From Amoebophrya sp. A120 (lineage: Eukaryota; Protista; Dinoflagellata), in NCBI GenBank assembly GCA_905178155.1, contig CAJINV010000013.1, positions 3,158,158-3,222,157 of the forward strand: a DNA stretch of 64,000 bases. Direction: 5' to 3'. A program made the position numbers and the translations under genes. Under the pieces are notes generated by a model. That model ran no database searches, had not been told where the DNA came from, and was given only the letters and a program-made list of their open reading frames with translations. Of this stretch, positions 913 to 63,200 are shown in pieces (positions within the stretch are counted from its first letter, which is position 1; each line of letters begins with the position of its first letter).

Positions 913-3467
913 ATGATGAGTATGAGGGCAAAGATACATGACCCGGGCACCACGACCAGAGCAAGGGGCTTCCGCTTCCACGCCTGCATAATTTCTAGTC
1001 TGGTCCCTTCCTTAGTGGGCGCGTTTTTGATCTCGGAAAATAAGCAAGAAAGTGGAAATAAAGCGAAAACCACCGAGGAAATAAGCGATCATGGCGTCGA
1101 CGAGTGGGTACAGCAAAAGGAGGCAGAGGGGGAAGGGTGGCGGAAGAACAACTGGGTGACCTTTAAGGACGAGGTTTGCAAGGGGCACGACGTGCTGACG
1201 ATCGAAGCAGCGGAATGCAAGTGCCCCTTCGGGACGGGTTACATCGGCGAGATTTCGTGGCCGGACTACTCCTTCACGCCGAACACACCTTGCGCTTTGG
1301 CGTCCACTCGCAAGGAGTGCGAAGAATTCGCGGCCGAGAAAGGAAGTAGTAGTACAAGTTTTGGGGCAGCAGCAGGAGCAGCACACCAGCACACAGCGAC
1401 CGGTGGCTCCTCTGTGGACTGGGAATGCGAGTGGGTTCCCTTTGCCTACAGCCAAGACGACGCACCGCTGAAGTACGGCGCCTGCGTGTCGCACGGACCC
1501 AACCACCCGAAAGACGAGATCGCCCCCGGCGTGATTCTACTGGGTTGGTGCTTTGTCTCCGGGTACGTCCTCCACGCCTCCGGGCCCTACTTGTGGCTGC
1601 GCTTGCTGTTTCGGCGGACCACACGGCATTTGTTGAATGCCGTTGGAGTTATCGGTGTGCTCGTGCCTCTATTGCTTTACCTGGTCAAGCCCAACGCCCA
1701 GGAGGAGCGCCCTGCGGCGGCCTGTGCGTCCTCGTATGGGATGCCGAGCGTGCATTCGTCGGTGGCGACGGCATTGATGACCCTGTACCTGCTGCAGCTC
1801 GCCTACGCCACGGACCGGGCGTCGGTCCGGATTCCCGGCGCCTTTGAGAACGGGGAAAGAAGGAACAAGCGTGCAGGAGGGGGTGACCTTGAGCGCGGTG
1901 GGGGCGATGAAGTTGACAATACGATGATCCTTCCGGAGCGACGCAGACACCTGGGCAACGAAACGTGTTTACTACAGTGCGCCCAGAACATCTATTTCCA
2001 AACGACGCAGTTGTGCAAATCTCTGCTGTCGTCTTTCGGCAAGTGCTGCTTTTACTCCGATGAGTACGAGTATTCCCACGGCGAGGCGGTCTTCTGGGCC
2101 GGGTTTCTGGTTTTGCTGTGGTTTCCGGTCGGGCCCTGTCGCGTGGTGTTGCGGGACCACAGTGTGTCGCAGACGCTGGTTGGGAGTTTCATCGGCTGCT
2201 TCTTCTCCATAGTGTGGTTCCAGGTCACCCGCGCGCTGGAAAGCTGGTTGCTGCCCTGGATCGGGAGAACCTATCTTTTCGTATCCAAAGGAAAAATCCC
2301 CCCTCCCCATATCGAAGAGTTATGTTTCCGAAAATTTGTGTTGCTGATTTGAGGTCACAAATCACATTTGTCCTGCAAGAAGACAAGGGCAGAACCTTCC
2401 GCCCCATTATGGAAGCGATTTGTCATGCTGTTGGGCCTAAAAGTGAGCCGTTTGTCGTGCTGAGCAACTAGACCCATACGCCCCTACCTAGCCGGGGGAT
2501 CTGGCCGTAATGCCTCTCTGCAATACAAACCTGATTTGTGTACGCAAATCCTAGATCGCTGCCACGCGGAGCCACCCCCGTATTTCACCCCCAGGGGGTT
2601 GCGGACCTGGCAAAGCCGATGAGTTCGGGCTGCTGACTGTTCCACCTTCCCTAAGTGTGATCACTGCCGCCTCACGCCTCACAAATCCAGCATCAGAAAT
2701 TCCGTTTTGATATGGGGAGGGGGGATTTTTCCTTTTGATATTTCGGGCTGTTTTCCCACGATTTGGCGCCGCCCTTCTACAAGTTCCGGTACGCGGTGAA
2801 AGCGGAACACGTGCCGGAATTCGAGCGGGTGAAGAAATTGAACCTGCCCGAGGGCCACGAAAAAAAGATTCGTTTGCAGCAGCTGCACCGTTTAGCAGCG
2901 GAAAGGATCATTCGGCAGCTAAATTTCTACCGAACCAACCGCGAACTGCAGCACGAGATGGCACTGAGCTCCGCGGGAAACGGGCGGATTGGTGGCGACG
3001 AGGAAGTCTTGAAGCGGCGTGCGAAGGTGCAGGAGGTCATTGATCTGCAGCAAGAAGTTGCGGACGTCGTTGGGTTGAATTTGAAGGACGTCCTGTTTCG
3101 CATTCAGAAGGGAACAACTGGTGCACAAGTCGGAAGTGCTGCTGCTATGTTGACGGGGGAAGGAGCAGGTACCAGAGGATCCACTGTACCAGCGGAGCAG
3201 CAGTACCGAGCGCGTCCGTCCGCGGCTGAAGCGGAGCAAGGGGGAGGTGCTGTGAACTCCGACGGTTTTCTCGTCACTGCTTTCGCCGGAGGGGAGAGTG
3301 GAGATGTCGAGGGCACGACCGGAGGGGGCAACGCAGTACAACAGCCCCTGTTGGCCAGTGCCAAGAGAAGCACAAACGCAGACGCCCGCATAACAACGGG
3401 CATTTATCCGGCAGGCGCTGGAAAAACCAAAACTTCCGTGGGAGGCGCAGGAAGTAGTGCGGCTTGA
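913..3467 (+). CDS. PAP2/dolichyldiphosphatase-like membrane lipid phosphatase, 2 exons (913-2281, 2746-3467)
   Basis: PAP2 motifs KPNAQEERP, YGMPSVH, CRVVLRDHSVSQT plus TM segments. Removing the element 2282-2740 and one TSD joins ...RTYLFG|LFSHDLAPPFYK in frame. Confidence 0.75.
2282..2740. mobile_element. Introner (MITE-like non-canonical intron), 459 bp
   Basis: TIRs tatccaaaggaaaaatcccccctccccatatc / gatatggggaggggggatttttccttttgata; TSD tttcg at 2277-2281 and 2741-2745. Confidence 0.9.
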
Positions 3468-5562: not shown

Positions 5563-8500
5563 ATGCTGAAGAGCCTTCCGCTTTTGTTTTTCAGCCTGTT
5601 CCTACACACAACCACTCCCGTGGTCTTTGCCGTGCCTTCACCAGAGTGGTATTTGCCCGGCGTCACGCCCGTGCAGTACCAGCAGGGGCAGCAAGTTCCG
5701 CTCTTTGTCAACAAGCTGACCAGCGTGAAAACACAGCTTCCCTACCGCTACTACACCCTGCCATACTGTATTTTTTTCGTCTTGGTCACTTTTCGTTTTT
5801 CGGTGACACTGACGTCAGCGTGACACAAGCTTTTTCTTCATATAACAACATGAACATCGTCCCGCAAGCCACAACTCCACCCCTCAACATATTTACACAA
5901 CAGGTTCCCCCGACAAGCTCCGCGAATCTCGCGGAAACCTGGGCGCCTCGTTGATGGGGGATGTGGTGGAAAATTCACCGTATGAGGTTCGCATGCTGGA
6001 GAATACCAACTGCAAGAACCTGTGCCAAAAACCGCTCACCTCGGAGGACAAAAAACTTTTCAAGTTAATGATCGACGAAGATTACCAAGTCAACTGGATT
6101 CTGGATAATCTACCAGGTACGAATGAAACTTTTGGTAAAATAGAGTAGAACATCTTCCTCGGATATAGCAGCTGGCTGAAGTTGTAGTACGCAGTCGAAA
6201 ATAATGCCAATGCATCTTGCCCCTTGTCCTTGCCTGGCTCAATATTAAGGTTGTTATCCTGGCGCAACTTTATGCTCATTCGGAAAAGGTACCACAAAGT
6301 ACGCGCGGAAAAATGCTGGAAAGGAAGACTACACCTACATGGTTGGATTTCCCGTCGGGCTTGAGCAGCGCGGACGCTATTTCCTGCACAATCACGCAAA
6401 GATCATCATTCAGTATTGCCGTTTTCGTTTTCCATAAACTGGCGCAAAATGTGTCAATGATGAGATTGTGATTCAGAATGAATCTATCGAAATAGTCCAC
6501 CACAAACTGCAGATACCACTCCTCTCCCACGGAGTTTGCGGGCTTCCGCATCGTCGGTTTCGAGATCGAGCCGCATTCGCTGACCAACCAGCAGACGGAC
6601 CAGTGCCACGAGGGCGAGACCTCCCCGGTTTTTGACCTCGACGCGCAGGACTCCGTCACTTTCACGTATGACGTTTTGTGGAAATTTTCGGAAGACGAGT
6701 GGTCGGGCCGTTGGGAGCGGTACATGAAGGGCGCGAAGGGAAAGATCCACTGGTTCAGTATTCTGAACAGCGTCATGATCGTGCTGTTCTTGAGCTCCAT
6801 GGTGGCCATGATTTTGTTGAGAACCTTGCACCGGGACATCTCGCGCTACAACGAAATTGCGACCAGCGAGGACAGTGCGGAGGAAACAGGTAGGAAAAGT
6901 CTTGCGAAATGAAATTTGTTATAGGCGGCCAATGAAGCGCTTCTTCTGAAATGCGTAGCAGGGCATTGTTCCAGCTCGTAGAAATTTGATCAACAATGAA
7001 TTGTGAAAGGACAAGAAACTCACAAAACAGGCTGGAAGCTGGTGCACGGCGACGTTTTCCGCAAGCCGGTGCACAGCAAGCTCCTCGCAGTTTCCGTCGG
7101 CAGCGGTGTGCAGATCCTCGGGATGAGCATGGTGATCCTCGTTTTCGCCTGTCTCGGCTTGCTCTCGCCCCAGTACCAGGGCTATCTGCTGCAGTCCATG
7201 CTGCTCCTCTTCGTCTTCATGGGATCTTTTGCAGGGTATAGAAATCGATTTAGAACTTCTACATAAAACAAAAACTGTCGCGGTCCTACAATGGATGCAT
7301 TCTCGAAGTATAATTTGTCTCCTTGTTGCGCACCACTGCGACGTGCGAGCAATAACATCTCAAAAACAAACTGCTCCTGATGCAGCTCGGACCATTCATT
7401 GTTGCAGGTACTACTCCGCCCGGCTTTACAAGATGTTCAACGGACAGGACTGGAAAGCCACGACATTGTTAACGGCCTTCTGGTTCCCGGGTGTGGCATT
7501 CACTGTGTTTTTCGTCATTAATCTCTTCATTTGGTATATGGAGAGAAAAAAGTTTGTCACAGTCACTAACTTGGAGGTTTTGCATTACATCACAGCTTTT
7601 CCTTGTATTGCAGAAACACTAGGGAAATCCCTCATGAAGTTTGGCTGTGATGCATTTTTACGCATGACAAACAATTTTGTATTGCAAGAATGCGCGATGA
7701 GTGATCGTGACGAACTTTTTTTCTTCGATATGGTACACGGGAAGCAGCCGCGCCGTGCCCTTTTCCAGCATGTTCAACCTGCTCCTGCTGTGGTTCGGTG
7801 TCAGTGTGCCGCTGGTATTGAATATCTTGACGCACCATGATGGGCGGCGAAATCGTTCTTCATACATTTTCGCTGTGGAGTTTTCACTTTTCAGAGATAG
7901 AAAGACATCAAACCATGATCTCTGCTTTCCCCGTCATGCGCAACCATACCACGACGGCTAATGAGTATGAGAAGTGACAACTTATTCTTCTTTGAAAATG
8001 TTTTTTCTACCTCGGCACCGCAGGTGTTCTTCGGTGCCTACATCGGATACCGGCGAGACACGATGGAACTCCCCGTCCGCACGAACGCAATCCCACGTCA
8101 CGTTCCCCCGCAACCCTGGTTCACAAAACCGCTGATCACATCAATGATCGGGGGCGTCTTGCCGTTCGGGGCGGTGTTTACGGAGCTGTTCTTCATTCTG
8201 TCGTATAAATTTTTCGAATTTTTCATTTTCGGTTTCTCGTTGTGCACATTCCACCAAAATCTATCAAACGCGACAAGGTTGGCACCTGGCATGGGGAATA
8301 CCAGTACTCGAAGATCAACAATAAAGTCACCGCTTTTAGTACAGAAAAATGAACACGACCACAGGTCCATCTGGCAGCACCAGTTCTACTACCTGTTTGG
8401 TTTTCTTTTCCTCGTCCTCATCATCCTCGTCATCACATGCGTGGAAATTTCCATCGCCCTGGTCTATTTTCAGCTCACCTCGGAAGATTACCACTGGTGG

Positions 8501-8725
8501 TGGCGGAGTTTTTTCAGCAGTGGCAGCAGCGGTTTCTACGTTTTTCTCTACGCACTGCTCTACAAGGCCACGCGTATGCAGATCGACGACTTTATCCCGT
8601 CGTTGGTCTACGTGGGCTACATGGGCTTGATGTCCTACGGGTTTTTCCTTCTCACCGGTGCTGTAGGACTCTTGGGGGCCTTCTCCTTCGTGAAAACTAT
8701 CTACGGAAGCATCAAGATCGACTGA
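5563..8725 (+). CDS. TM9SF: Transmembrane 9 superfamily (nonaspanin/EMP70) protein, 9 exons
   Basis: Signal peptide then YLPGVTP..Y, VNKLTS, IHWFSILNS, GWKLVHGDVFRKP, EDYHWWWRSF, C-terminal KID. Inferred introns 5768-5903, 6117-6288, 6413-6512, 6890-7030, 7236-7407, introner ~7534-7732, 7815-8023, 8203-8364. Confidence 0.95.
7537..7730. mobile_element. Introner, 194 bp
   Basis: Imperfect ~31-bp TIRs tatggagagaaaaaagtttgtcacagtcact / agtgatcgtgacgaactttttttcttcgata; TSD tggta (7532-7536, 7731-7735); removal restores IWYTGSSRAVPF. Confidence 0.88.
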
Positions 8726-12500: not shown

Positions 12501-15500
12501 ATCACCGTTCTGAAACGGGAAATCTCCGGCACCATGCTCTGCGACCTGCTTTGCCGCGGGATCTGCATGAACAAAGGGGACCGAGCGGAGATAGAGGAGA
12601 TACCACGGTCACCCTCCTCCTCTGTTTCCCCAACCGGGAAACCCAAACCCCTCTCCAACTGGAAGCACCTCGGCCCCGACCACACCGACTGCGCGTTGCT
12701 GTCGTTTGCTTTTGAACTGGGCTACGACTACCGGAAATTCACTTCCAACGGCCCGCAGCAGCAGCAAAACGAAAAGAAGAAGAACCGTCCTGGTGTGGTG
12801 TCGAAAAAGAAAAAAACCACCCGGAATTCCTTCACCGTTCGACCTTTCACCAGTGAGAAGAAGCGCGCGACAGTGGTGGTAAGGGATTTGAACATGGGCG
12901 GGCACACGGTTTTTGTGAAGGGGTCCGTGGAAAAAATTCTGCCCTATTGCACGAAGAAACTGAATCTGGATGGGTCCGAATCGTCATTCCCAGCGACGGA
13001 AGAAGAAGACAAGTTGATCCGGAGCGGCATCTTCGGGCACAATTTACTGGATCGAAACTCCGAAAACAACAGCGTGCCCTTTCTGGTCGCGCTGGCTTGC
13101 AGAAGGTATAGTGCGGAAGATCATATGGCCGCCGCTGATGCGAACAACAATTATGGGCAGCAGTCGCAATCCGGGTCAAGTTCTAACTCGAAGGCAAACA
13201 GCGCTGTCTCTGGTGAAAATAACAACGATGAGAATGAAGACAGCTTTGAATGGACGCTGAAACCCGCGGTGAGCAGCAAGAACACAGTTTATTCGAGGCG
13301 GAATTTTTACAACAACGAAACGCGAGTATACCAAGAGCAGCAACTCGACGACGATGACCTTGACGAGCGTCACGGTGGTGTCGTTTTCTCGGAGGCGAAT
13401 AACGGGATAGATTTTTTCCCACCAATAAATTCGGACGATGAAGAGATTCTCACAGAGAATTCCACCATCAACGATTTGTACGACATCGAGACGAATCTGA
13501 CCCTGATCGCGGTTTTGGCAGTTTCCACGCCACTGCGACCCTCGGCGAGACCCGCGGTGGAGAAGTGCAGCAAAGCGGGCGTCGACGTCCGCTTGATAAC
13601 CGGTCTCTCCATGGAGTCCGCGATCATTTGCGCGCGGAACAGTGGGATTTTGAGAAGGGGGATTGACTACAACCCGTGGGACCCAAATATTGTCTCCGAT
13701 CGCGCGGTGTTAACCGCGGAAGAGTTTCGGAAACGAGTACTGGTTTCCACGGGCGGTGGGGGAACAGCAAACCAAGAACAGCACAATGCCGGCGAGGTTC
13801 TTATGGCACTCTCAACTGTTACATTCTCAGCTGTTACATGAATTTGTGATGCAAGAGCGGCAAAATTGAAAGGGGGAAGATTGCGCCTTTTGCATTACAA
13901 ATTCCGCACAGATTTAGGTGCTGTCTAGCCCTGCTTCGTAGATTTGTCATGCGAAGCAGCTTGACCACCTGGCGCCTTGAGGTAATTTTGCATGACAAAT
14001 CATGTAACAGTTGAGAATGTAACGTTTGGGAGCGCCATAGTTCTAGAGGAAACCGAGAAGGTTCTCAACCGCACCGAATTCGACCAGGTGTGGCCGTATT
14101 TGCGGGTCTTGTGCCAGGCGACTTCTTTGGACAAGTACTTGCTAGTGACCGGGATAAAAGACTCGACGTTGTATCAGGACGAGCAGGCGGTTTTGTCCCT
14201 CGGGATTTTCCCGGACAGGCAGGTGGTTGCGGTGACGGGAGAGAGCGTGACCGACGCGGAAATTCTAGAACAGTCCGACATCGGGTTCGTCATGGCAGAT
14301 TCGAACAACTTATCCACAGCTGTGGCGAAGGAGTCCGCGGACATTTTGATCACCACGTCGGAACGAAATCTGGTCCCTGCTGTCACAACTGGTCTGGCGA
14401 GACCTGACGGATCTTTAATAAGAGGAGAGCCGAACAAGACTTCGAACAGTAACAACAAGACAACCAAGCAGCCTGACGGCGGTTTTTCCAGTTTGATGCA
14501 AGCGACGAAGCTTGGGCGGAACGTTTACGAGTGCGTCTACAAATTTCTCCAATTCCATCTTACCACCACTCTAACCGCCTGCATCGTTTTCCTCGGCGGG
14601 GCGGTTACGTCCGGGGGAAGCCCGTTAACCGCGATGCAGCTCCTTTGGATCGCGGTTCTGATAGATGTGCTAGGAGCGGTGGCTTTGGCGTCGGAGCCGG
14701 CGACGGAGGATTTGCTAGAACGGCCGAGCCTGTTTCTCATCAACACCAGCTCCATCAATTCCACTACCAGTAACTTGACCAACGACTCGCAGCTTTTTTC
14801 CGCGCAAATGCTCTACCACATCATTTCCCAAACTCTCTACCAACTCGCAGTTCTCGCCACCATTCTGTTCGGCGCGGGCGACTCCGGACGCGGCGAAACC
14901 TGCGACATGCGGCACCCCTATTTCCCGGCGCGGAACTGCGACGGGTGCGGCGGCTGGTTGGACCTGCCGAGTGGGTTTGACCGGGAGCCCTACGTCGATT
15001 TTCCGACCCAGCACTACACGCTTCTGTTCAACACGTTTGTGTTTTTGCAGGTCTTTAATTTGATCAACTGTAGGAAGATTTACAACGATTGGAACGTGTT
15101 TGCGGCGATCACGAAGAATCAAACGCTGATGCTCATCGTTTCCATCATCGTCATTGTCCAAATCTTCATCGTCGAATCTGGAGCCCTTTTCAACGTGCTG
15201 CTGAATAACGACTTGACCACGGAGCAGGAGAGAACGAACCACCTGATCTGCAAGTCCGTGAACCACGCGTTTCGCACGGTGCACCTTCCGCTCTGGCAGT
15301 GGGGCGTGTCTCTCTCCCTCGCAGCTGGGTGCATTGTGTGGCGGATTTTTTTGGTGGCGCTCGCAAAGTCGAACTTTTTTACTTTGTTCTGGAAAGAGGA
15401 CATTTTTGTCAGCGGTTTTGGAACGATAAGCGGCATCCGCAGGTGGAAGAAGGGCGGATCCTCTACTGCGAGTGGAGGAGCCAATAAGGATGGGAGTGGG

Positions 15501-16642: not shown

Positions 16643-19600
16643 ATGACAACGTACGGTACTACCGTGTCGCAGTTGCGACAGGTCTTTGAAGGTCGTGACA
16701 ATCCGCAGATGCTCAACGACCTTGGTAACGTAAACGGGATTCTGGAAAAGTTGAAAGTGAACCCAAAGGAGGGCGTCAAGCAGGCGGATGTCGCGGACCG
16801 GCAGCGGGTGTTCGGGGAAAACCGCATTCCCGAGAAGCCGGCACAAACCTACATGCAGATTCTCATCGGCGCGTTTCAGGATTTGACGATCATCATGCTG
16901 ATCTGCGCCGCCGTGGCGTCGTTAATCGTGTGTTTCGCGTTTGAAATACCCGAGCACCCATATTACAGTGAAAAATGCCCCCACCCCCGAACTTGAAAGC
17001 ATTTGTATTGCAAACCTTTCCAAATGAAACACTCGCCCTCTTGCATCTATCAGCATCGCAGGTTTTCAATCGTGAATAGCAAAGATTTGTATTGCAAAAT
17101 GCCCCAGCAAGAGTGGCGCTTGTCATGCAAGCGATGCGATACACGCCTACATTCTGCATCAAAAAGATTCATACTCCTTTCATGCATGACAAAAAGTTTT
17201 CATTTGGAAACTTCGCATCACAAATTTTTGCAATTTAGGGGTGGGGGGCACTTTTCACTGTAATAACCCAGACTCCCTCTGCTGGATCGAGGGGACGGCG
17301 ATCATTGGGACAGTTATTCTGGTATAAGACGCAGAGGCTCAGGCACTGACAGTGCAATGGGTGAAAAGTTTACTACATCGTGCATGTAAAAAGTAGTAGA
17401 GTGAAGGACTGTATTAATTTCTGTTTGCATGCAAAAAACAAGTCTTTTCTTTACCAAAGAGGACAGCGAAACATAAATTTTACGAGGTAACCAACGTGGC
17501 TGCGCTTCAAGATTACCAGAAAGAGCAGCAGTTCCGGAGACTCAACGCCGAGGTCGAGAACATCACCACCAACGTAGTTCGTGACGGCCAGAGAATCGCG
17601 GTGTCCCGATACGATTTGGTTGTCGGGGACATTGTCCGACTTTCCATCGGCGACATTCTGGAAGGCGACGGCGTCTTGGTCGAGGGGTTTGACGTCGAGG
17701 CGGATGAATCCGCGTTAACCGGGGAGCCAATTTTGATCAAGAAAAACCCCGACGCGCCCTTTTTGCTCAGTGGAAGCAGTATACAGAAGGGACAAGGAAC
17801 GTATGTCCTGATTGCGGTCGGGGTAAACAGCGAGAAAGGGAGAATTCAGGCGCTGGTAGAAGAGCGATTTCTTTACATAAAGAAGATGGAGGCCATTTGT
17901 TCGAATCATGTTGTTGCGTCACGTAATCCCGGTCGTTCCAAGCGCACTTTTTCTGTATCCCATCGAATACAAGGAAATAAAACATCATTGTTTCAAAAAC
18001 CTCAGGTCCGTGGGCACAATGTCGCGCTAGCAACCGTGGAAACGGATGACGGTGAGAAAAAAGAGGCGGAGGAAAAGAAAGAGGAGGAAGATATGCAGCT
18101 GGAAATCTGTTGTGAATGTCTTTCTAGTTGATCAAGATGCGGAAGCCGTGGCTACTACCACGGCTTCCGCATCTTGATCTTCGCGGAGTTGTTTTGCAAG
18201 CGTCTATTGTTGCACACGAGAAAGGAAATGCGTTTTCGACCTGTCTTTACCGTACGCTTGAAAAAGACAAGCATGATTTGCATTTGGCATCTCAACAAAA
18301 ATTTCGTTCCCACAACGGAAGAAGAGGAAGAGGAAAAGTCCCTGCTAACGAAGAAACTCGACGACACCGCCGAGCTAATTGGTGTGCTCGCAATGAGAAT
18401 CGCGGGGATTGCGCTCGTCGGAATGGCCTTGAATTGGGTCATCGACCAGGGAGAAGACAGCTTCTCCGACGGAAAGGCCTTGCGCGACGAGGCTATCCAG
18501 TGGGTACGTATGGAAATAAACCGTTCTCTTACTAGTGCTTGTTATGCAAGACGATGTTGCACTGCATTCCTAATCCAATTCCAATGTTGATGTTTTGGTC
18601 ACGCGTTTGAAAGATAAGATGGAAAATCATAAATGCCCACAAAACCACCAGATTATCATGGCCATCACGATCGTCGTGGTCGCCGTCCCTGAGGGTCTTC
18701 CGCTCGCCGTTACATTGGCCCTTTCCCTTTCCGTCGGCCGCATATGAATTGCAAAAATGTCTGGGTCTGGAAGATTGCAACTTGTCATGCTAAATCTGCA
18801 GCATGCAAAAATCTGTGTTGCATGATTACCAAAAGTCGTCCAGTTTTGACCAAGTCGGGAGGTAGTTTCTCATGCAGGATAGGCATTAGAAAGGTCTCGC
18901 AGAATCTGTCATGCTAGGTCCTGCATTCCAGACCTCATGGGTCATGGAAAAGCAGCATGACAAACCTGGCATTTTTCCAGACCCAGACATTTTTACATTT
19001 GATACCGCATGCAGGAGGACGAGTGTTTGGTCAAGCGGCTGGATGCCACCGAAACCATGGGCTCCGCCACCTGCATCTGCACAGACAAGACCGGGACACT
19101 TACGCAGAATCGCATGACGGTGGTGAAGTCGTTCTTCTTCGGCGCGAACGCGGCGGACAACACTGTTCTGACGACCGCGACGGAGACCTGCGGGGCTAAG
19201 TCAAAGCAAGCAATAGCCGCGGATAGCTTCAAGCAAAAGGTGTGCTACGGGATCTGCGCGAACAAGGCCGAGGCGGAGATCGAGTTTGACAAGGTGCTTG
19301 ACCGATGGACACAGATGGGGAACAAAACGGACTGCGCGTTACTTGCCTTCAGTCACGACATGGGATACGACTACAAGGTGTTGGACTTTTCCATGTCCAT
19401 GGCGAAAAAGATCTACCCGTTTTCCTCCATGCGGAAGCGGGCGGGCATCGTGATGCCGCACCCAAGCGGGTCGGGATTCCGGGTGTACGTGAAGGGTGCG
19501 TCAGAGATGATTCTGTCCCTGTGCAGCAAGAAGTGCGACTCGTCAAGCGACGCGGAACAAGAATTCACAGAACAGGAGAAGCGGGAAGTAATCACCAAAG

Positions 19601-22600
19601 TCGTCACACCCTTCGCGAAGCAGTCACTAAGGACAATCGGGCTCGCCTACAGGGACGTGTCCGCGGGCGAGAGTCCGGATTGGGACGCAGTTTTGAGTGC
19701 GGAAGACGCGTCCAGAATCACCGGACAAGCAGCGGAATGTCCGGTCTTTGAGACAGAGGTAAAGTCCCGGTAAATAACTTGTGTGTGCAGCGCATTTGTG
19801 CAAGTATGGTGATTTGCTGTGTCATGCGAAAAAAAAATGCAAACGCCACGAAATGAAAATACACATGATCAAGTAGATGTACAACATGGACAAACACGAG
19901 TCTGCATGTGTGTCCAGAACTTCTTTACAAATGACAAAACAGCTCACATTCCTTGGCCTGGTCGGTATCGAGGACCCACTTCGTCCCACCGTCGAGCCGG
20001 CGATCCGAAAGTGCAACTCCGCGGGCGTTGACGTCCGCATGGTAACGGGCGATAACATTGACACAGCGGTCGCGATCTCCAAGCAGTGCGGGATTCTGCG
20101 GCCGGGCATCGACATCGATGCCAGCTCCGGCGAAGTTTTGAACAACGCCGCGCTGTCCGGGCCGGAGTTTAGGAAGCGAGTGGTCGATAGCAACGGCAAG
20201 ATCAACCAGGAGGAGTTCGACAAAATCTGGCCGACCTTGAGGGTTCTCGCAAGGTCAAGTCCAACAGATAAATACTTGCTAGTGTCCGGTATCATCGAGT
20301 CTGATCTGTTCAAGAACCGGAAAATTTGCGAGGAGACAAAGATCTACCCGGACCGACAAGTGGTCGCCGTCACGGGCGATGGGACCAACGACGCGCCGGC
20401 ATTGAAGCGCGCGGACGTCGGGTTTGTGATGGGGTTAAGCGGGACGAGCGTCGCAAAAGACGCGGCGGACATTGTCATCACAAACGACGACTTTTCCTCC
20501 ATTGTCGAGGCGTGCAAATGGGGCCGGAACGTGTACGATTGCATCAGCAAATTCTTGCAATTCCAACTGACCGTGAACATCGTCGCGGTGACCCTGGCGT
20601 GCACGGGGTCGTTTGTGGACCGCGAATCACCCCTGCGAGCCGTGCAGATGTTGTGGGTGAACTTGATTATGGACTCGCTAGGGGCTTTGGCGTTGGCAAG
20701 TGAGCCACCAGTGCCAGAACTGCTGGAACGACCACCGTATGGGAGGAACAAACCGTTGCTCAGCTTTCAAATGAAGTACTTTGCTGATTTTTTGTGTGCT
20801 TTGCCTCCGTCATGCGATGCAGCAAGTACCAGAAAACGAAAACCTAAGGCTAGGCTATCTTTGTCATGCGGAAAGTGTATATAGTGAAAGTGAAGGTAGG
20901 AAAAGTGAAGCCATTGCTCGATGCCTGTGCGAAAATTTTGTCAGGTTCAACATGTTTGGGCAAGCCATTTACCAGCTCATTGTCCTCTTTGTACTTCTTT
21001 ACGCCGGTGCCGGAGCCGAGAAGGGCGACAAGAAGCCCGCGGAGGGACAAGCAAGGAGGTTTTTTATGCCATCTGAAGTCGACAACAGCGGAAGCGACTA
21101 CGACGTGTGGCACTGTGACGCCAGGGAATACAAGCAGGAGTACTACCAGAAGGCGTTTCCCACGCAGTCGGCGTCATCACCTCAAACAGACGCCCAAATC
21201 GACGCCGCCCTGGCACCCTATGGCGGGCTCTGCAGCAATTGCGGAGGCTTTCTCGACATTCCAAATGGTACTACATCAGGCTGCAGTTGTTGTAATTGAA
21301 GGTATGGTTTGTGTGATAAGGAGGCAACACGGGCCTAGCGAAGCGGCCCGGGTAGCCGACGCGGGAACACAAAGCGGATTTTTATAAGGAGATACTCCCT
21401 TCCCCACCGGTCGACGTTGTTACGGTCCCGGGAAGACCTAAAACTCGACCCAAAGTAATTCAAGTCAGCTCTCAAGTGAGTTTTTTTTTTTCAAGCGGCC
21501 TGCTGCCGCGCGTTTTTTCCAAAATGACAGTAAAAATGTATTCGCGAATGCGCCCTGCGGTGTGGTCTTCATCTCCTCCTCTCAAAAGTAGTTCCTCACG
21601 TCAAGTTTCAAGTGAAATTTTTTCAAGCGGCCTGCTGCCGCGCTTTTTTTTCAAAATCACAGTAAAAAATGTATTCGCGAATGCGCCCTGCGGCGTGGTC
21701 TTCATCTCCTCCTCTCAAAAGTAGGTCCTCACCTCCTTCAATTCGCCTGAGCGGTCAAAGCAAGTTTCAACTTGTCATACACTCAACATGCCCTGAGGCA
21801 CTGTAGTGGCCCGGCCACCTTTCCTTTCCTCTATTCCCTCTGAGAAAGCAAAGCTGTAGCGATCGCCTGTCTGACACGATCGCGCTTCTACTGAGCCTGC
21901 TGCTATTTCTTCACTTTGGCACCACGGTTGCACTCATCTACTAGTTTCAGATCTTCTTATCGCATGTGCGACAAGGGACAACGAAGAGCCCGAGCCCGAA
22001 AGGTGCCCCGTGGAGGGGCGGCCGTGGTAGGCCTCGCACAGGCCTATGTCCTGGCGCGGCCATCAATCAGGCTTCATTCCCAACATGACGGCGCGCTGAG
22101 CGTCAGTGCGACTGCAAGTACAAACAACCCAACGCACTCGCACCCCAGCGTGAGGAATTCGTCGGCCCGCCGCTGGGGTCAGTTCTTGGACCTGTGTTTT
22201 TTTTCCAACATTGTGTTGATGCTCCTGGGGGCGACGGAACAGAATAGGGCTGTCCTTACTCATGTGGTGTCCTCCCTGAATTTTGTAGACGATTTCACCT
22301 TAGCGGCACTGCAGCTCTCGGGCATAGCGACAGGGCCCGCGTCTACTCACCTGCAGCAAGTTGAAGCTGTTGGAAATAGTGACGGCGTTACTTCGTCCGG
22401 GGCTTCTGCCATGTGAATTTTTGCAAGGGGTTTGCTTTTTCTCCCGGCTCTACAAACTACAAGTTTTTCTAGGCCCGGCCTTCACAAAATATCAACTACT
22501 TACATTTGATAGCTTCAAGTGCACTGGCTTGGCTCTACGCCCGCCGTTGGCCGTCCTATGTCTAGGGTCCCTCACTCTGTGCTGCGGCATGAGTGAGCGT

Positions 22601-36526: not shown

Positions 36527-38280
36527 ATGGGTTGCGCCGCCTCCCAGGATGGAGCGAACAGACGAAGACAGAACCAACAAAACCAGCAGAACCAGCAGAA
36601 TCAGGACCCGCAGAATCAGCAGCAGCTGCCGGGGGGAGCGGGCGCCGGGCCAGGAGGGCCTGGTGGTGGTGGGGGAGCTGGAGGACCCGACTCGCCCTCA
36701 TCACAGAGACAAAGGCAGCAGAGAGATGTACTTATACAAACATACTTGTTTAGTTGCGCTGCCCCCATGATCTGGTAGCGCAGTAGCAAGCTTTTTTACG
36801 CAAACAAGGGTGGGAAAACCTCCACCTCGCGCTTCAAAAAATTGAGCGGTGCGTGACCAATATGAAAGAGAATTTTCTTCCAATTTCAAAAACAATCCTA
36901 AACTACAGCGCTCCGTCCGTAAGGCTCCGATAGTGAAGGCCCTGGTCGCCTTGGAAAATGAACACATAAAGCTGGAGAAAAAAGGACAGGGGACGTATGA
37001 ACTTGGTTTGCAGCTGTCCGTGCTCCAGGGAATGCGCGGGTTCGAAGTCACGGCGACATTTAACGGTAATATTTGTATGCAAGTCAGCTATTCTTGTTGA
37101 AGAGATCTCGTCGTCTGTGATGCGTGTCTCATACGGCAGATGATGATCTCGATTGTGCGTTTTGCATGTCAAAGTTAAAATCCTTTCACAAAACAACAGC
37201 TTTCGTCGCAGATCCGCAGGAGCACAATGTGATACCCTCTGTCACCGCCCCGGACGTGTCTTCCGAGTTTAAGAAAACGGCATCTGGGCAAAACAAAGTA
37301 GCGTTTATGGGCATACCAAAAACGATGCTCTCCTCCATGCGCAGTCCCAAGGAGTCGGAGTTGCCCAACGAGATACCCTTGGTTATTCACATAAGGTCAC
37401 TGCAGGAAAACTACTCCTCCAAAAACGTCTATGGAAGTGTCAGAATCGAAATTGACAAAATCGAAAAATTTGTGATGCACAAAATCGATGCCAGTTGGAG
37501 CCTCAGTTTTCAACTGGCGCATGACAAATTTCGGGACCACCAAAATCCAGTCTGTCATGCTGTTTGGGCAAAGCAGACTGCTCCTGTCATGCTACTCTGG
37601 CAACACATTGTCTACCCCTAAACAGGCTTACAACCGGTCTCATTTGCCTGCTCCCCAATACAGGCCTCGCGTGCCCTACATTTTATGCATCACAAGTTTT
37701 TCGATTTTGTCAATTTCGATTCTGACGCTTCCATAACGTCAACGCGGTCTGGTGCTACTGCAATCTGCGCGAGACCGAGAACGAAAAATACGAGGTGCTG
37801 GTCATGAAGAAGATGGTCGCATGTACTACTTCATACTTTTCGACGTCGTGTTTTCTTTGGTTTTTTTCAGAACCGAATCGGATTGAGGACGTCAAATAAA
37901 AAGAAACTTTCAATTTGGTTGCGTTCCTTCGCCATGCTGCAGTTGTACCTTGAAATGCAACACTATGCAAATCAAAACAAGATGAAAATTCATCAACAGG
38001 CGAAGGGCGGTCATACCTGCTACAAAATCTGTTTGGTGGCACCGTAACGCTCCCGGGCGACACAGAGGGCGACGGTCAGGAGTGCGTCGTCTGCCTTTCC
38101 GCGCCAAGAGAGGTTGTGGTTCTGCACTGCAAGCACGTCTGTCTCTGCAAGGCCTGCGCGGGCGTCACCAGCTCCACGTGGAGCTATCAGTGCCCGATAT
38201 GTCGCGGCCGCGTCGCAGCCTTTGTCGCCGTCGACGACGCAGGGCTTGCGGGAGGTGGAACGTCGGGCGCAGTTACATGA
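36527..38280 (+). CDS. LOG2/LUL/MGRN1(RNF157)-like RING E3 ubiquitin ligase, 5 exons
   Basis: N-terminal MGCAAS (myristoylation-like); last exon from 38000 reads GRSYLLQNLFG...ECVVCLSAPREVVVLHCKHVCLCKACA...CPICR. Inferred introns ~36728-36848, 37066-37199, introner 37430-37735, 37823-37999. Confidence 0.82.
37430..37735. mobile_element. Introner, 306 bp
   Basis: ~56-bp TIRs tatggaagtgtcagaatcgaaattgacaaaatcgaaaaa... / ...tttttcgattttgtcaatttcgattctgacgcttccata; TSD acgtc (37425-37429, 37736-37740). Confidence 0.93.
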
Positions 38281-50459: not shown

Positions 50460-50507
50460 AGATGATACATGCACGCGCATCAACGTCTGAACATTGGCCC
50501 CAAAGCA

Positions 50508-53343: not shown

Positions 53344-55377
53344 ATGCGCAAAACTTTTTCTACTTGTTTGCAAAACGCGCCGCCAGCAGAGCCACTGTAC
53401 TGGCGAGTCTCGGTCCGACGTGCGGCCAAAGAGACAGGAATCGGTGGAACGGGTGATGATCCTCGATTGGTGCAAGCGCGACTCAGATTGCCAATCTTCG
53501 GAACGAGGCAGAGTGTGATAGCACAGCCCAGTTCTTCTACTACGTGGTGTGCAACGTCAGCAGCATCGCTACCGGGAAGTAGACATCGAGGCCCCCTCGA
53601 GCACCACGCAGCGTCGTTCTCCACAACAGCCAACAGCGGAGGTGGTCGTGCAAGTTCTTCTACCTCTAAGGATGATGAAGACAAACGAAAAACGTCTGAG
53701 GACCAAAACAATGCGAGTGACGGCAATACCGGGTCGGGCACCTTCCGCGGCCGCTTTTCTTCGGACCCGGATAATCCCAATCATGAGCAAAGCGGTGGAA
53801 GTACGTCTAGCTCCAGTTCCGCCGCTGCGAACAAGAAGTACTCTGGCGAAGTTCCGGATTCCTTGAAGCATTTCCCGAGCTTCTGGCACCACCGGCAGAT
53901 AAAGCAGTTGGAACAGGAGATTACGGTGGAAAAGAACAATCACTCCCCCTCGCCCACTTCCAGCGACCAAAACGTGCCCCACTACCCCGAAGAGAACCTG
54001 CCCGACGCCTACAAGCCGCCGCAAGCGCGGACCCCCGGACAGACGCTCTTTCCGGCGGAGAAAGAGGATATCGAAATCCTCTCCGCCTCGAACCGGCTCT
54101 ACGCCCACCCCCGGTGGTGCGAGAACGCGACGATCTTGCGGATTGTGCGGTTATCGGATCCGGTGACTTCGCCGGTGTACCGGACAAACAGGAACCTGAA
54201 CCCCGGGGCCCACGGGACGGCGAAGTACGACCGGTTTGGGTACGGGCTCTTCTTCGCCTGTTGGGCATTCAGCCTGGGGTTCTGGCAGCTAGAGCGGATG
54301 GAGTACAAGAAATACCTGGTGGAACTACGGGCGAAGCGCCTCGCGATGCCCCTGGTCAGGCTGGAAAAGTCGCCGTTTCCCTGGCGGGACGGGATCGAGG
54401 GTATAATGTAGAATATGTGGAACTTGTTTTCCTTGCGTACTTATTTCAGTCGCAATCACAACAAGTTGCATGCAACAATCATACGCAAACTTGTACCTGA
54501 TATCGGCTCTTCAACAAACGCAGGTTGGGAATACCGCGTAGTCCAGACCCGCGGAGTGTTTGAGCACAAGAAAGAAATGTGGGTGGGTCCCCGGGCGCAG
54601 GGCGATCCGGCGGGGAACAGCTGTGGCCAGGGGTATCTGGTGATTACGCCCTTGGTTCTGGAAGATGGATCAACGATTTTGGTGAACCGCGGCTTCCTCA
54701 CGACCCAGGTGCTGCGCAACAAGGACCACGAGGTGCCTGGCTTCGTGCAAGTCCGGGGGGTCTTGGAGGAGGGCGAGATTCCGAACCAGGAGACCAACCT
54801 GCTGTACTTGAAAAACGAACCAGGACAGAAAAAATTCACCTGGCTGATCGCCGAAGACCTGGCCTACCACAGCTCCGCGGTGAACTACGAGGAATGTTGC
54901 AAGGGGCTCATAACCGCCTACGATTGCTACTACGAAGACCGAAAGAAGCACGAGCTGAGGTTCGACATGCGGCGGAAGGAGGATTTTCTGTTGTTCAACT
55001 TCGATGAACACACGAATTTCCAGTACGCAATCCAGTGGTTCTCCATCGGCGTAGTGGTTCTCGGAACGTACATATCAACTGTAAAAATGTCTGGGTCTGG
55101 AAGAATGCAAGATTTGTGATGCAGGTTTTCCATGACGCATGAGGTCTGGAATGCGAGACCCAGCATGACAGATTCTTTGAGGGCTCTATCATGCCTTTCC
55201 TGCATGAGAAACTCCCTGTCAACTTGGTCAAAAGCGGACAGCTTTTGGCACTCATGCTACACAGATTTTTGCATCATTTAGATTTAGCATGACAAGTTCT
55301 AACCTTCCAGACCCAGACATTTTTACATTTGATAGTACATCTGCAGGTTGAGAAGCGACTTGCTGTGGAGGTTTTAG
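53344..55377 (+). CDS. SURF1: SURF1/Shy1 cytochrome c oxidase assembly factor, 3 exons
   Basis: FSLGFWQLERMEYKKYL, GYLVITPL, ILVNRGF, FQYAIQWF. Intron 54401-54523 and introner 55073-55334; stop 55375-55377; start uncertain. Confidence 0.88.
55073..55334. mobile_element. Introner, 262-bp family, copy 2
   Basis: TIRs tatcaactgtaaaaatgtctgggtctggaa / ttccagacccagacatttttacatttgata; TSD gtaca (55068-55072, 55335-55339). Confidence 0.95.
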
Positions 55378-56419: not shown

Positions 56420-59078
56420 ATGGGTGCCGGCGACAGCAAAGACGAACAAGGAAATAACTTAAAATCATTCTCATCTGGTACTACTACAACTAGTAATACA
56501 ACTGGAAGTGCAAAGAGCAAACACAAGAACAGGAACAGCACGAGTACTAAAACCGAGAAAGCCAAAACGCAACAAAAAGAAGAGAACCCCAACAAGAATA
56601 AATCTGGATCCAAGAAGTCCTCCATCTCCCCATCTGCATCGTCTGCAGCGGCAAAGATGAACGAGGGACAGGCAGTGGGAGTCGCAGCCAAAGATGTTGC
56701 CGCTCCAGCTAGTGCTGCCACACCGCCTGCGGAAAAAGAAGAGCGACAGCAAGTAGGAGGCGAGCCAGAGCAAGACTCTAGTAGTACTGCGGGCAGTGCC
56801 GCTGCCTCCGCCACGACAAATGACATCAGTAACGAAAAGCTTCGCGGGAGCTACCTCACCCGCCTGGGCATTGGCGCTTCGGCGACGCAGCAGGGGGTGA
56901 CGCGCACCTCACGCAACAGCCCGGGGCCGAACAATGGCACGAACGGCATCAACGAGGCCGACAACAGCCCCCCGAGAAGCGGCGCGGCGGCGGAAGGGGG
57001 GAGAAAAGCAACGCAGCAAACCGTTGTGGATTCGGTGGAGAAGAAACACGCAAAGAGCCCAGAAACGACGAGCGGAAACGGGGCGGGAGATAATCTATTC
57101 AAACCGGCGGCAAGGTAGAGCTGGATAATAGATTTTTTCGAGGTTGTCGCTTTTTGCTCGCAGTACGTAGATCATATGAAAAAGACAGTGCTGCTGAATG
57201 ATTGAAACTGAATTTTGGTATATGCGAAGATAAGTTAGTAAATTGCAGACCGGATTTGCAACATTATCCACTGTAAACGATCGACAGAACTGGCAACTCC
57301 CCCGGCGCCGGTCTGTTCGACAGTATAAACGACGTCGACGCGGAAAAGGAAAAAGAGGAGGCAAAGCCCGCGGCCCCAACGAAGGACTGGCAGATGACGA
57401 TCATCGGGGAAAACGACACTGCCCGGCTGATTCCGAACGAAAGGCCCGACGCGTTCCGCCACAAGTTTCTGCAAAGATTGTCCTACGAAAGAATCTGGGT
57501 GCCGCAGAGGGAAAGGGCGCCCAAGCATCAGACAGGTAATGTGCTTTGTCTGAAAAGTGTGTCTTGTTGTATATGGTACGTATAGATACATAGGCTCCTT
57601 GTACTTCTACATGCAGGTAGAAGTGGTTCTTGAAATGAGCCTGATCATCGCAACATGAAACTCCAACCACAGTGATCATCTTCGACTGGGACGACACCCT
57701 CCTCTGCACGAGCTACCTCAACCTGCGTCTCCCCACCCCGGAAATCCCGGCGCACATCCAGAAGCAGCTGGTCTTACTCGAACGCGTAGGCTGTCAGCTG
57801 TTGGAGTTGGCCATGAAACTGGGCACGGTTTTCATCATCACCAACGCCATGAAGGGCTGGGTCGAGTACTCGGCAAGCAAATACATTCCGAGACTAATGT
57901 CGACGCTGCAAAAGTACATCTTGAACAGTTCTTGTGTTTTCATCGCGACATAAATTAGATACAGGCGACAGATATGCACAAATGAGTTCATGCTTGCATA
58001 AGGTGAATCTGCCACATTCTGCATGACAGAGCGTTTTTGTCGTCCTTGGGCTGCGTAGCAAATGTCCCAAAACCCATGACAAAACAGAATGACCATCATT
58101 TCCGCCCGCGGCAACTACGAGCATGCGTTTCCGGGAAATTACGGGCAGTGGAAGATCGAGGCGTTTTTGCAGGTGCAGAGAGAGCTGAACTCCTCCATCA
58201 TCACAAATCTCGTGTCGCTCGGCGACAGCAACATGGAGATGGAGGCGGTGCACGTGATGGGCAAGCAGTTCGACCAGGCACTGATCAAGACGATCAAGTT
58301 CCGCGAGTCCCCGACCCCGGAGGAGCTTGTGAAGCAGTTGGAGCTGGTCGCGCAGAAGTTCGAGAAGATCATTCTAAACGCGAGAAATTTGAAGATCGGC
58401 TTGGAAAGAAAGTGGTCCGGGAACCAGCAGGGTGGTGGAGGTGGTTCATCTCAGGGACACCACCAGCAGCAACAGCAGAAGAGCGGTTCGAGTAAGCCGT
58501 CAACGCCGGTTGCGGCGGCCAACGCTGGCGGAGCGTCCATTGCGCCAGCAGCAGCAGGAACAGGACCGCAGGCGACAACGTCCTCGGGCAGCACGCCGAA
58601 CACGTCGTCTTCGACACCAGTGAATGAAAACTCCGCGACTGGAGCGACGTCACTCCACGCACAGATGCTGCGAGACCAGCAGAACAAATCTTCAGCCCAA
58701 GGTGGAGCACCAGGAGCTGTTCCAGCAGGACCACCACCTTCATCACAACCCCAGAGCAGCGCCTCCACCACCGAAAACAGTGCTGATAAGACCCCGACGG
58801 GGGGTACCAGTCCGAAGGATAACTCCTTCGAGCAGGCCTCTGACGGCTCGTCGGTCTGCGACCAGCCGCCGAACGTAGCGGATGTCGCAGACGTGGACGG
58901 GATGACGTCGCCGCGGCGTGCTGTCATCACCGCGGAAGAAAAGAACGAGGCATTGCGTCGCGCGGGCTTCCATCCGAACGAAAAGTTCCATGACGTTTCT
59001 GTGGCGGACGGTTCCTCAACTGCAGGTGCTGAGAAGACTGTGGCAGGCGGTGTTGATGAAAGTAGTGCGAAGAATTAA
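56420..59078 (+). CDS. HAD-superfamily-like conserved protist protein with low-complexity flanks, 4 exons
   Basis: TVIIFDWDDTLLCT (DxD motif), IITNA..GWVEYS, IISAR, NLVSLGDS. Inferred introns 57115-57287, 57536-57672, 57914-58087. Confidence 0.8.
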
Positions 59079-60248: not shown

Positions 60249-63200
60249 ATGATGTCCTCGCGGCTGGATGCACGGGAACTGCAGCGCAAGAGCGTGCACC
60301 GCATGCTCCACCTGGCGCTGACAGATGAGGACGTCATATGCATTGCAAATATGTCTGGGTCTGGAAGAGTGCGCGATTTGTCATGCAGCTTTTCCATGAC
60401 CCATGAGGTCTGGAATGCAGAACTTAGCATGACAGATTCTGCGCGATCTCTCTCATCCCTATCCTGCATGAGAACCTCCCTCCCGACTTGGTCAAAACTG
60501 GACGACTTTTGGTAATCATGCAACACAGATTTTTGCATGCTTCAGATTTAGCATGACAAGTTGCAGTCTTCCAGACCCAGACATTTTTACATTTGATACG
60601 TCAAGTCGTACGACAATAAGGCGCAATGGAAGGTATTGACACCTTTTTGTGATGGTTTGTCCGCATGATAGACGGACAACTCCTCTCCTCACTGCGTTGG
60701 AAATTACAAATAAACTAGCTCCTGCTGCGTGACCGATTCATCTCCAGTGAGAAATTGAAACACAAAACCAGGCTCTCGTCTACGACAAGCAAGGCCAGGA
60801 CATAATAGCCCCGCTATTCACAGTCGGATCGTTGCGATCCCTTTTCGGCGTCACCCTCCACCGGTCGATCACCAGTGAGAGGAGCGAGGTCCCGGACGTG
60901 CCTTGTATCTACTTTTTGGAGCCGACAGAAGCGAACATACAGAAGATGATCGACGACTGCAAACGGAAACTCTATCCAGAGTAAGTTCGATGTTTGAGAA
61001 AAGATCATCTTGTTGCACTTAGGATGCATGTTGTTCTTTTAGCTGTCTACCTTTACTCTTCGCATCTGTCGTGAGAATATAATAACTTCGCACAACTGCA
61101 TCAATTTCAATTCCCGCATAGTAAGTAGCTAGTGTTAAAATTATGCTCTTCCTAAAAATCAGGCTCTATGTGAATTTCACTTCTTCCGTTCCGCGCCCGT
61201 TGCTCGAGAAACTCGCATTTGGCCTGAACGAAATCCAGGAGGCTCGGAGAATAACGAGCGTGGTCGATAGATTTGTCAATTTCGTCGCCCTGGGCACCAG
61301 TTCGGTGAGTTTGAATTTGGAGAAGTCTTACCAGACACTCCGGTCCTCACTCGTCACGGACGACATTATTGAGAAACTGTTGGATTCCATCGCCACCGGA
61401 ATTCTCTCCTTGTTGGTCACCTTGAAAGTGGGGATTCCCATCATCCGCTGCCCGCCGAACGATGCCGCGCAGCTGGTCGCGCAGAAATTGCACGAGAAAA
61501 TCTACGACTTAACGTCGAACAGCGGGTCAGGTGGGTCCGCAAATAAAACCGGTGATTTATTCCAGGGTTCGTTCGCCCACGCGGGGGAGCCGAGACCGGT
61601 TTTGTGCCTGTTAGACCGGGATTTGGAATTGGGGACCATGCTCGCGCACACCTGGACCTACGAATCCATGTGTCAGGACGTTTTGGGGATGCGGTTAAAC
61701 AAGCTGAGTGTGATAGAAAACGAAGACGACCCCGTGAAAGCGCAGAAGAAGACCTATGACATAGACGTATCTATTGTGTTTTTTTTGATGTTGCTTCGAC
61801 GATCGTGTTCGTGCGCGCTATTCCTGCATGACCTGCTTGACGACAGCGACACAACATAGTGACATGTTGTACAAGCGTGATTCAGATATTAGCTTCAAAA
61901 TTCTGAAATACCATACGAAACAACACTATCAGCCCAACGACAAGTTTTGGTCGGAGTACCAGCATGTCATTATCCACGAGCAGTTTGAAGCTGTCGACCG
62001 GGAACTCCAGGAATTCAACAAAAAGCACAAGCACATGCAGTCCGGGGACTTGAACCAGGCAATAACGCAACTACCCGAGATGCAGGAAAGAAAACGATCG
62101 TTAGAGATGCACACCAACATAGCGCACTCAATATTGAAGCAGATCCAGAAGCGGGCGTTGGACAGGTAGGGTGCTTAATGATGCTTAATGTGCAGCAGAC
62201 GAAGAACTACATGTGCTTGTGCATGATGTGCATCTAGATCATTTACGTTGCGGTGGCCTAATCCCCAAGATTCAATATACCACTAGTGCTTCTACCATAT
62301 GCCTCTTTGCACCCAACCCAAAACCAACCCACAGGTTCTACGTCGTCGAAGACCAATATGCGCAGCAATCCGTGCCCAACGCCTACTCCGCACTGGAGGA
62401 GCTTCTCAAAGAGGTCCCGAACGCCACGCAGCAAGACAAAATGCGGGCGATACTGGTGCTGTTCTTGACAAAAAGCGCGGTGTATACCAGGAAGGCCGAA
62501 GGAGGTCCGGACAACAACAAACTGTCCGATTTGCTTTTCCAACTGGACAAGATCGGCGCGTCAAGAGCACCGCTGGCGTACTTGGAGCACATCGTGAAAA
62601 CAACCTGTCACAAGTATAGAGTAGGTCTTTTTGATTGTGGTGATGTTCCAGTATCAGTTTCCGTTGGTCATCGACATGATTGGCATTGTCCAGCGCCTAA
62701 CTATTGTTTCTAAAATGCACTACCAGGCCCCAACTTTCCTCCGGCGCGAACGACCTTCAAAACACCATCGCGAACCACGGCCAAGCCGCCCTAGGCCAGG
62801 TCATCGGTGGGCAGCACGCGCACGCGGTGGGGCGGATGTTCGGGGGGTTACTCAACCAGGCGGCGGAAGCCACGATGCGGAATCTGGAGAAAATCCTGCC
62901 CACGAAACGGGAGTTGCTCACGACAAAGATCGTAAAGACGCTGATGGAGAACAGACCGGATTCGCAGGCGGACAGCTCAGCCGCAAAAGTGGATAACTAC
63001 GTGTACTTGGATCCGAAACTACCGCCGAGCACCAGGGTATTTTAGCTGATTGGAAACAAATGTGCTCACTCTATACCACGAGACGTGTTATTTTATGCTA
63101 GAAGACGCTTGCTGTTACTGTCGTATCTGTATATATTCCTATTCCTCTTTCTTTTGAGAATAAAACTAAAAGTGAGCACCTCGTCCCTACAGGCTGCCGC

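Follow-up and report, generated by a model that had tools for sequence, protein, structure and literature searches.

A 64,000-nucleotide stretch of the Amoebophrya sp. A120 genome (contig CAJINV010000013.1; the window hereafter) contains nine intact introners, transposon-like elements that act as introns, and all nine carry an octamer (TGTCATGC, or UGUCAUGC in the other orientation) that also occurs in some of the ordinary GT-AG introns. The octamer is the core of a longer site that recurs at a spacing of 31-33 bp. We propose, with a confidence little above even, that these sites would constitute a phased subterminal binding array for the transposase that mobilises the introners, and that the copies in GT-AG introns would in part be relics. 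What is new here is that predicted ordinary introns are about fivefold enriched in the site.

A pattern search over the window returned 24 exact copies of the octamer against 2.19 +/- 1.51 expected, a count reached in 0 of 100 shuffles, and no other 8-mer of the window is more enriched against a third-order background. The 24 positions given by an earlier sequence-only reading were all exact matches, and its chance expectation of about two agrees with ours. Nineteen of the copies lie inside nine TAT...ATA introners (0.26 expected), eight on the transcript strand and 11 on the opposite strand, so that each of the nine holds one to three. The remaining five copies fall in five of the window's 34 GT-AG introns (0.34 expected, P 3e-5). 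As that reading had also noted by eye, exons are free of the word: none was found in 29,989 coding bases (1.0 expected, hence absence and not depletion), and the same is true of 15,175 intergenic bases and of 10,214 bases of the ~10-kb PMCA intron.

The nine elements were recovered by a systematic scan for TAT...ATA elements flanked by 5-bp direct repeats, that is, target site duplications (TSDs). The TSD is exact in eight and has one mismatch in the ninth; eight of the nine contain a pair of sites 30-33 bp apart, and all nine have relatives among the loci described below. We built nine spliced gene models in the window, all of which translate without stops, with Pfam support for PAP2, EMP70, two cation ATPases, armadillo repeats, SURF1 and Sec1. 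Contigs of run X5 (presumed RNA) cover positions 2150-20200, where they confirm 11 GT-AG and five non-canonical introns (six more joints were not displayed). The five non-canonical joints correspond to four elements with terminal inverted repeats (TIRs), each removed with one TSD copy, and to a decayed intron at 18090-18317. Four of the five elements in this stretch are thus missing from the contigs together with one TSD copy, which indicates excision without GT-AG ends; the fifth, 2282..2740, is absent from the joints displayed. The raw-read runs X10-X12, with 2-5 reads placed each, gave no intron information. The earlier statement that every introner carries the octamer holds for all nine TIR elements of the window, but not for the RNA-supported non-canonical intron at 18090-18317, which has no exact copy.

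Introners of the window (no strand assigned to the TIR elements) and the decayed intron, with the orientation of each octamer in brackets:
2282..2740, TIR introner in the PAP2 gene, TSD TTTCG; octamer 2421(+); two 32-bp pairs of profile sites, at offsets 56/88 and 140/172
7537..7730, TIR introner in the EMP70/TM9SF gene, TSD TGGTA; octamer 7662(-); 32-bp pair at 110/142; RNA contig skips 7532-7730
13802..14039, TIR introner in cation ATPase 1, TSD GTTCT; octamers 13945(+), 13990(-); inward sites ~43 bp from both ends; RNA contig joins 13796 to 14040
16961..17265, TIR introner in cation ATPase 2, TSD ACCCA; octamers 17121(+), 17184(-); pairs at 33 and 31 bp; RNA contig
18090..18317, + strand, non-canonical intron with a decayed TAT end; RNA joint 18089-18318; no exact octamer, one weak profile site
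18743..19004, TIR introner of the largest family, TSD CCGCA; octamers 18783(+), 18907(+), 18955(-); pairs at 31 and 32 bp; RNA contig
32282..32563, TIR introner, TSD GTACG/GCACG; octamers 32360(-), 32445(-)
37430..37735, TIR introner, TSD ACGTC; octamers 37519(-), 37553(+), 37585(+), with a 32-bp spacing of the last two
55073..55334, TIR introner in the SURF1 gene, family of 18743 in opposite orientation, TSD GTACA; octamers 55163(-), 55287(-)
60337..60598, TIR introner in the Sec1-family gene, family of 18743, TSD CGTCA; octamers 60379(+), 60427(-), 60551(-)

GT-AG introns of the window that carry the octamer (all + strand):
19759..19942, octamer 19820(+); RNA joint GT..AG, the sole RNA-backed one of the five
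20776..20944, predicted from the reading frame; octamer 20862(+) and a second, weaker site
41725..41924, predicted from the reading frame, armadillo-repeat gene; octamer 41877(+)
42031..42178, predicted from the reading frame, same armadillo-repeat gene; octamer 42095(+)
57914..58087, predicted from the reading frame; octamer 58021(-) and a weak site 32 bp beyond

A spaced site shared by introner families

The wider sample consists of 130 loci fetched with one family-specific pattern from a single related public assembly (667 kb of unique sequence) that holds the same families. Because the loci were picked for holding the largest family, we applied family weighting. Window and loci together contain 413 intact elements, 404 of them from the related assembly, and the scan made one false match in 728 kb of shuffled DNA. 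The family pattern had 0 matches when searched in viral contigs. The exact octamer is present in 342 of the 413 elements and missing from the other 71, so that "every introner" does not extend literally beyond the window. By single-linkage homology the elements fall into 23 groups, 20 of which include at least one exact copy, or into 63 tighter subfamilies. When one random element is drawn per group, 18.3 of 23 carry the octamer, compared to 0.27 after shuffling. The word is thus neither as frequent in intergenic or exonic DNA as in introns nor confined to one family, the two outcomes that the sequence-only reading had named as refuting it.

That reading had placed the octamer across unrelated TIR families. 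Its occurrence across families persists once homology is collapsed, but "unrelated" does not fit. In the family-weighted end logo, an invariant TAT is followed by C or G, looser bases and a run of A, giving TAT(C/G)-N6-AAAAA with A at 71-84% at positions 11-15. This end rule and the TSD length are common to all homology groups, and the interiors cannot be aligned between families. Because of the shared ends and 5-bp TSD, the introner families likely belong to a single transposon system and not to unrelated ones. Among the 348 introners whose insertion flanks were compared, the TSDs follow no consensus; a T at -13 and a G at -11 from the TSD are preferred on one side only (171 on one side, four on both, 173 on neither; 175 of 348 with the preference). 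One of the loci holds a C-5 cytosine DNA methylase gene interrupted by an introner (L007:2635-6090).

The family-weighted profile of the site reads A-Y-Y-T-G-T-(C/A/G)-(A/T)-T-G-C (AYYTGTVWTGC; 13.6 bits), and the octamer is its commonest form and core. The word picked out earlier is therefore real, but it is only one variant of this wider site. It may resemble RBFOX, PUF, TALE-homeodomain or ApiAP2 motifs, a likeness that has no part in the argument here. At a lenient cut-off the site is found in all 407 elements shorter than 500 bp, on average 5.6 times per element. Sites that point inward are most frequent at 33-34 and 41-45 bp from the element ends, and in 335 of the 413 elements at least one end has such a site at a distance of 28-60 bp. 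We claim only these two distance peaks, because a 10.5-bp periodicity was not distinct in the power spectrum, which has similar power at 7.5-11 bp.

Same-strand pairs form a sharp peak at 31-33 bp. Within 30-33 bp the family-weighted count is 53.4, compared to 11.5 +/- 2.6 by permutation (maximum 20.4 in 300 permutations), and 15 of the 23 groups contribute. Such a spacing equals three helical turns of B-DNA. Converging pairs are commonest at 15-16 and 47 bp, so that a spaced site often has an inverted copy 15-16 bp in. Tandem duplication was considered as the source of the spacing and ruled out, because the spacers between paired sites are no more alike than unrelated positions (identity 0.28 versus 0.27); a faint inverted half-site lies midway. 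In 14 subfamilies, divergence from the family consensus amounts to 4.4% in the core, 9.3% in the terminal 16 bp and 18.8% elsewhere, and in the most diverged introner copies private changes are still half as frequent in the core (0.032 versus 0.062).

The presence of both orientations had earlier been taken to suggest a binding site on double-stranded DNA, and this idea gained support. Within families, the site is retained equally on the transcript strand (465/648) and on the other strand (401/573; odds ratio 1.10, p 0.50). A maintained RNA stem between the two end sites is ruled out, because their variable bases match no more than chance (0.21 versus 0.24) and so show no covariation. Since retention is equal between strands, covariation is absent and the spacing corresponds to three turns, the site is likely read on double-stranded DNA.

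Copies in ordinary GT-AG introns

Ordinary introns were collected with a custom gene finder trained on the loci alone; in a held-out test on the window it recovered 32 of 34 introns exactly, with five false among 37. For the loci it predicted GT-AG introns of two grades, 104 strong and 106 weak, from which 8 and 27, respectively, were dropped for BLAST homology to introners. The kept introns and the 34 of the window make up a set of 209, most of them gene-model predictions, with a high-confidence subset of 130. The octamer is the top 8-mer of the 209 introns (20 copies on the sense strand versus 1.0 expected). A strong profile site is present in 65 of them and absent from 144. The high-confidence introns contain 53 profile sites compared to 9.9 in local shuffles, a 5.35-fold enrichment, and the 34 window introns alone have 12 versus 2.0; in the 11 RNA-supported GT-AG introns, 2 sites versus 0.6 are not significant (p 0.115). 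Elsewhere the enrichment is 0.41-fold in window intergenic DNA (2 versus 4.9), 0.75 in window coding sequence and 1.72 in loci intergenic DNA, which likely holds unannotated genes. Because only five of the 34 window introns have the exact word, the "general intron mark" proposed from the sequence can at most be a weak, diffuse one.

The sites in GT-AG introns are also polarised, with sense sites leaning towards the 5' end and antisense sites towards the 3' end (p 8e-6). After correction by local shuffling, the excess in the 5' versus the 3' half is 23.7 versus 9.4 for sense and 4.5 versus 19.5 for antisense sites. Intron composition is itself polar, and for the bare core at a strict cut-off the polarity is not significant (p 0.12-0.13). 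Pairs at 30-33 bp number 12 versus 3.2 expected; six of the 12 come from weak introns, and in the strong set only two of 18 site pairs have this spacing. Across window and loci, GT-AG introns are rich in T at the 5' end and in A at the 3' end and lack a pyrimidine tract; other words enriched in them are AGTAG/CTACT and TCCTCG (25 sense versus seven antisense). Their donors are almost all GTA; the TAT end of the introners resembles the host donor, since most donors are GTAT or GTAC.

Decayed introners had been offered as one source of these copies, and judged by sequence similarity at least seven of the 65 site-bearing introns are introner relics: their match to introner family profiles extends outside the motif (controls, 0.3; site-free introns, 0 of 144). 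In the others, TIR, TSD and homology traces are lacking. In addition, the 35 predicted introns that were dropped show BLAST homology to introners; among them, for example in L037 and L038, are intermediate forms that combine GT-AG borders with one or both TIR ends. Of 362 intact elements, seven are located within predicted GT-AG introns. When the 34 window GT-AG introns were compared with 63 family models by profile search, the best match was not significant (E 0.007). The site-bearing introns have ordinary phase and ordinary AG|G context. The introner target footprint is present at the expected offset in 12% of them versus 53%, a comparison whose positive control failed, as the 35 introner-homologous introns equally lack it. 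The remaining site-bearing introns may represent a retained host intron mark.

Binding array, intron mark or RNA signal

We propose that the site would be read on double-stranded DNA by a multimeric protein, most probably the transposase that mobilises the introners, much as hAT transposases read subterminal repeats. A rigid oligomer could contact multiple sites from the same side of the helix while its catalytic subunits hold the TAT tips. Every family that uses the enzyme would keep the site and its spacing, and the rest of the element would drift. The GT-AG copies would likely derive from introners that inserted into ordinary introns or were converted to such introns, as is apparent for a minority of them only, and some copies may now be under selection.

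Several observations weigh against this binding-array reading. An inward site at 28-60 bp is present at both ends in only 232 of the 413 elements. No transposase family or BED domain was found with Pfam in 165 open reading frames (ORFs) of at least 170 aa from window and loci (116 + 49), a scan that left out 75 shorter ORFs, and ORF clustering and lone-end scans revealed no autonomous or master element in the loci. Farhat et al. likewise found no transposase in A120, in the available part of their paper (PMC7789003). We do not claim hAT membership, because no transposase was found. One candidate for a master element, L058:11264-14203, was rejected: it spans 2.9 kb from TAT to ATA with perfect 30-nt TIRs, a 5-bp TSD and other internal short repeats, and has no long ORF. 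In the GT-AG introns, 58 of the 65 site-bearing members are devoid of homology, TSD and TIR traces and do not exceed site-free introns in length; sites per intron are spread in a near-Poisson manner and not bunched in a few relics; and window intergenic DNA has no excess of sites. The T and G of TGC are unmutated in the GT-AG copies, unlike simulated neutral decay (10 mismatched copies over a background of 12.8 in 209 introns; a post hoc comparison). Traceless, near-Poisson and TG-invariant copies favour retention by the host.

A host intron mark on DNA is the foremost alternative, although we regard it as rather unlikely. A host protein or a domesticated transposase would bind the phased site and help the spliceosome to find intron ends during transcription, and the dense two-way arrays of the introners would allow removal in either orientation. 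Besides the spread of sites and the invariant TG, this explanation draws on the contrast between the fivefold enrichment in high-confidence introns and the low values in window intergenic and coding DNA, the inward polarity, the excess of 30-33-bp pairs, the ordinary phase and context of site-bearing introns, which have no introner target footprint, and the halved rate of core changes in diverged introner copies. U1 small nuclear RNA (snRNA), moreover, was not detected in A25 or A120 according to the available part of PMC7789003. The site is not required, however, since 144 of 209 GT-AG introns have no strong copy and one RNA-supported non-canonical intron has no exact one. The mark is further weakened by the reliance on gene-model predictions, the non-significant count in RNA-supported GT-AG introns, the contribution of low-confidence introns to half of the spaced pairs, the dependence of polarity on cut-off and composition, the failed positive control of the footprint comparison, the post hoc nature of the TG argument, and an introner library that may miss extinct families. 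Alternatively, UGUCAUGC could be a splicing enhancer read on the pre-mRNA by an RNA-binding protein, its two orientations arising merely from two-way insertion; we consider this improbable. An RNA motif was first suggested by the exact word, the top 8-mer of GT-AG introns without BLAST homology to introners, which occurs there 20 times in sense and four times in antisense orientation. Intact introners show a slight bias as well (256 sense versus 211 antisense, p 0.04; 293 elements with an assigned strand), most of it stemming from one family inserted 22 versus 9 times in the orientation with more sense copies. With the profile, the bias in high-confidence GT-AG introns shrinks to 29:24, and it is absent from retention within families. 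The rigid 31-32-bp spacing fits DNA geometry, and the end sites show no stem-like covariation. A word without function, shared through descent of a single family, tandem duplication or base composition, is very improbable and largely refuted. Three of the nine window elements do belong to one family, and the common end rule suggests shared ancestry of all families. Nevertheless, the word persists when each group contributes one element, conservation of its core is four times that of the surroundings, the spacers are unrelated, and the enrichment survives local dinucleotide shuffles.

The binding array and the intron mark could also be stages of one history, in which an array at transposon ends was turned into a genome-wide DNA intron signal. 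A transposase-derived or host protein would then bind inward sites 31-33 bp apart in introners and ordinary introns alike, marking the ends for a spliceosome that lacks U1. We think this unlikely, but if true, a signal written in DNA would explain the exact removal of thousands of non-GT-AG introns in either orientation. What moves the introners (no transposase was found in A120) and how they are spliced without GT-AG ends or a detected U1 are two open questions in print, in the available part of PMC7789003. A 13.6-bit site of fixed geometry, common to nearly all families, provides a probe or bait for the moving protein and a filter for master elements. The fivefold excess in ordinary introns allows a direct test between old introners becoming GT-AG introns and host use of the site, and either outcome bears on the origin of new spliceosomal introns.

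Window genes and known systems

The two cation ATPase genes are adjoining paralogs. The first (9483-15746) has an introner as its only intron; the second (16643-32742) contains six GT-AG introns, three introners and the decayed non-canonical intron. A GT-AG intron of 10.6 kb in this second gene (21268-31888) holds no octamer and has no Pfam match. A 52-nt unit that covers the exon end and intron start of this intron is repeated at 21249, 25249 and 31723 (in part at 22805), a pattern that resembles repeated site-specific insertions with a long target duplication. The same intron includes a segment (23201-24205) with a 93% copy in L021. An assembly gap of 407 N at 28082-28488 is flanked by an identical 266-nt stretch on each side (27816-28081 and 28489-28754), likely an assembly overlap. 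In intergenic DNA, 50776-51100 has inverted repeats nested in one another, their arms 63 and 29 nt long, and short internal repeats but no octamer, and is possibly another palindromic transposon. The armadillo-repeat gene with two octamer-bearing introns is presumably PF16-like. Relatives of its exon, sought to date the intron positions, amounted to one weak match (L131, 39%, E 2e-4), which was not used. An Rfam search of the window returned nothing.

By their end rule, the window elements match the published introners of Amoebophrya sp. A120. As described in the available parts of Farhat et al. 2021 (PMC7789003) and Gozashti et al. 2025 (PMC12130899), these belong to many families of ~240-260 nt, with TIRs that start with TAT, seven looser bases and an A run, direct repeats of 3-5 nt at the junctions and removal without GT-AG. 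The elements described here share the TAT TIR with its A run (at least three As), the junction direct repeats, the non-GT-AG removal and the repeated families; their direct repeat is a constant 5-bp TSD. Of other Amoebophrya strains, A25 has TTA-ended introners, and the introns of AT5 are nearly all GT-AG. The internal shared motif, its 31-33-bp spacing and its presence in GT-AG introns are not described in the available parts of the two papers, and TGTCATG and CATGACA are absent from the text and supplement of Farhat et al., figures aside. Within the literature covered on Amoebophrya and dinoflagellate introners, their splicing and transposases, which excludes subscription papers, we found no description of the motif, and a text search for the literal octamer listed matches that were unrelated by title. 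The octamer array is thus apparently an unpublished, real feature of a known intron class.

In the available part of Gozashti et al. (PMC12130899), most A120 TIR families are of unknown superfamily. IS3EU/GingerRoot elements have the same TA..TA termini, but their TSD is usually 6 bp in the part of PMC10045372 available, compared to 5 bp in the window. Non-conventional introns of euglenids and Fritillaria are likewise non-canonical, with paired termini and TSDs like those of MITEs (miniature transposable elements with inverted repeats). Their conserved bases are at the ends, and the available part of PMC11282704 mentions no internal phased array shared with ordinary introns. The closest likeness in arrangement is to the subterminal repeats of the hAT elements Hermes, Tol2 and Ac, which are also short, present in both orientations, located inside the TIRs near the tips and dependent on phasing; for Hermes, exact phasing is crucial (available part of PMC10368747). 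The usual hAT TSD is 8 bp, so that among hAT families the 5-bp TSD fits hAT5 only (available part of PMC12730594), and other superfamilies also make 5-bp TSDs. According to the same part of PMC10368747, Hermes has a 4-bp site (AAGT/C) bound by a BED finger, an 8-bp TSD and irregular arrays, whereas here a 10-11-bp site repeats regularly at 31-33 bp in elements that act as introns.

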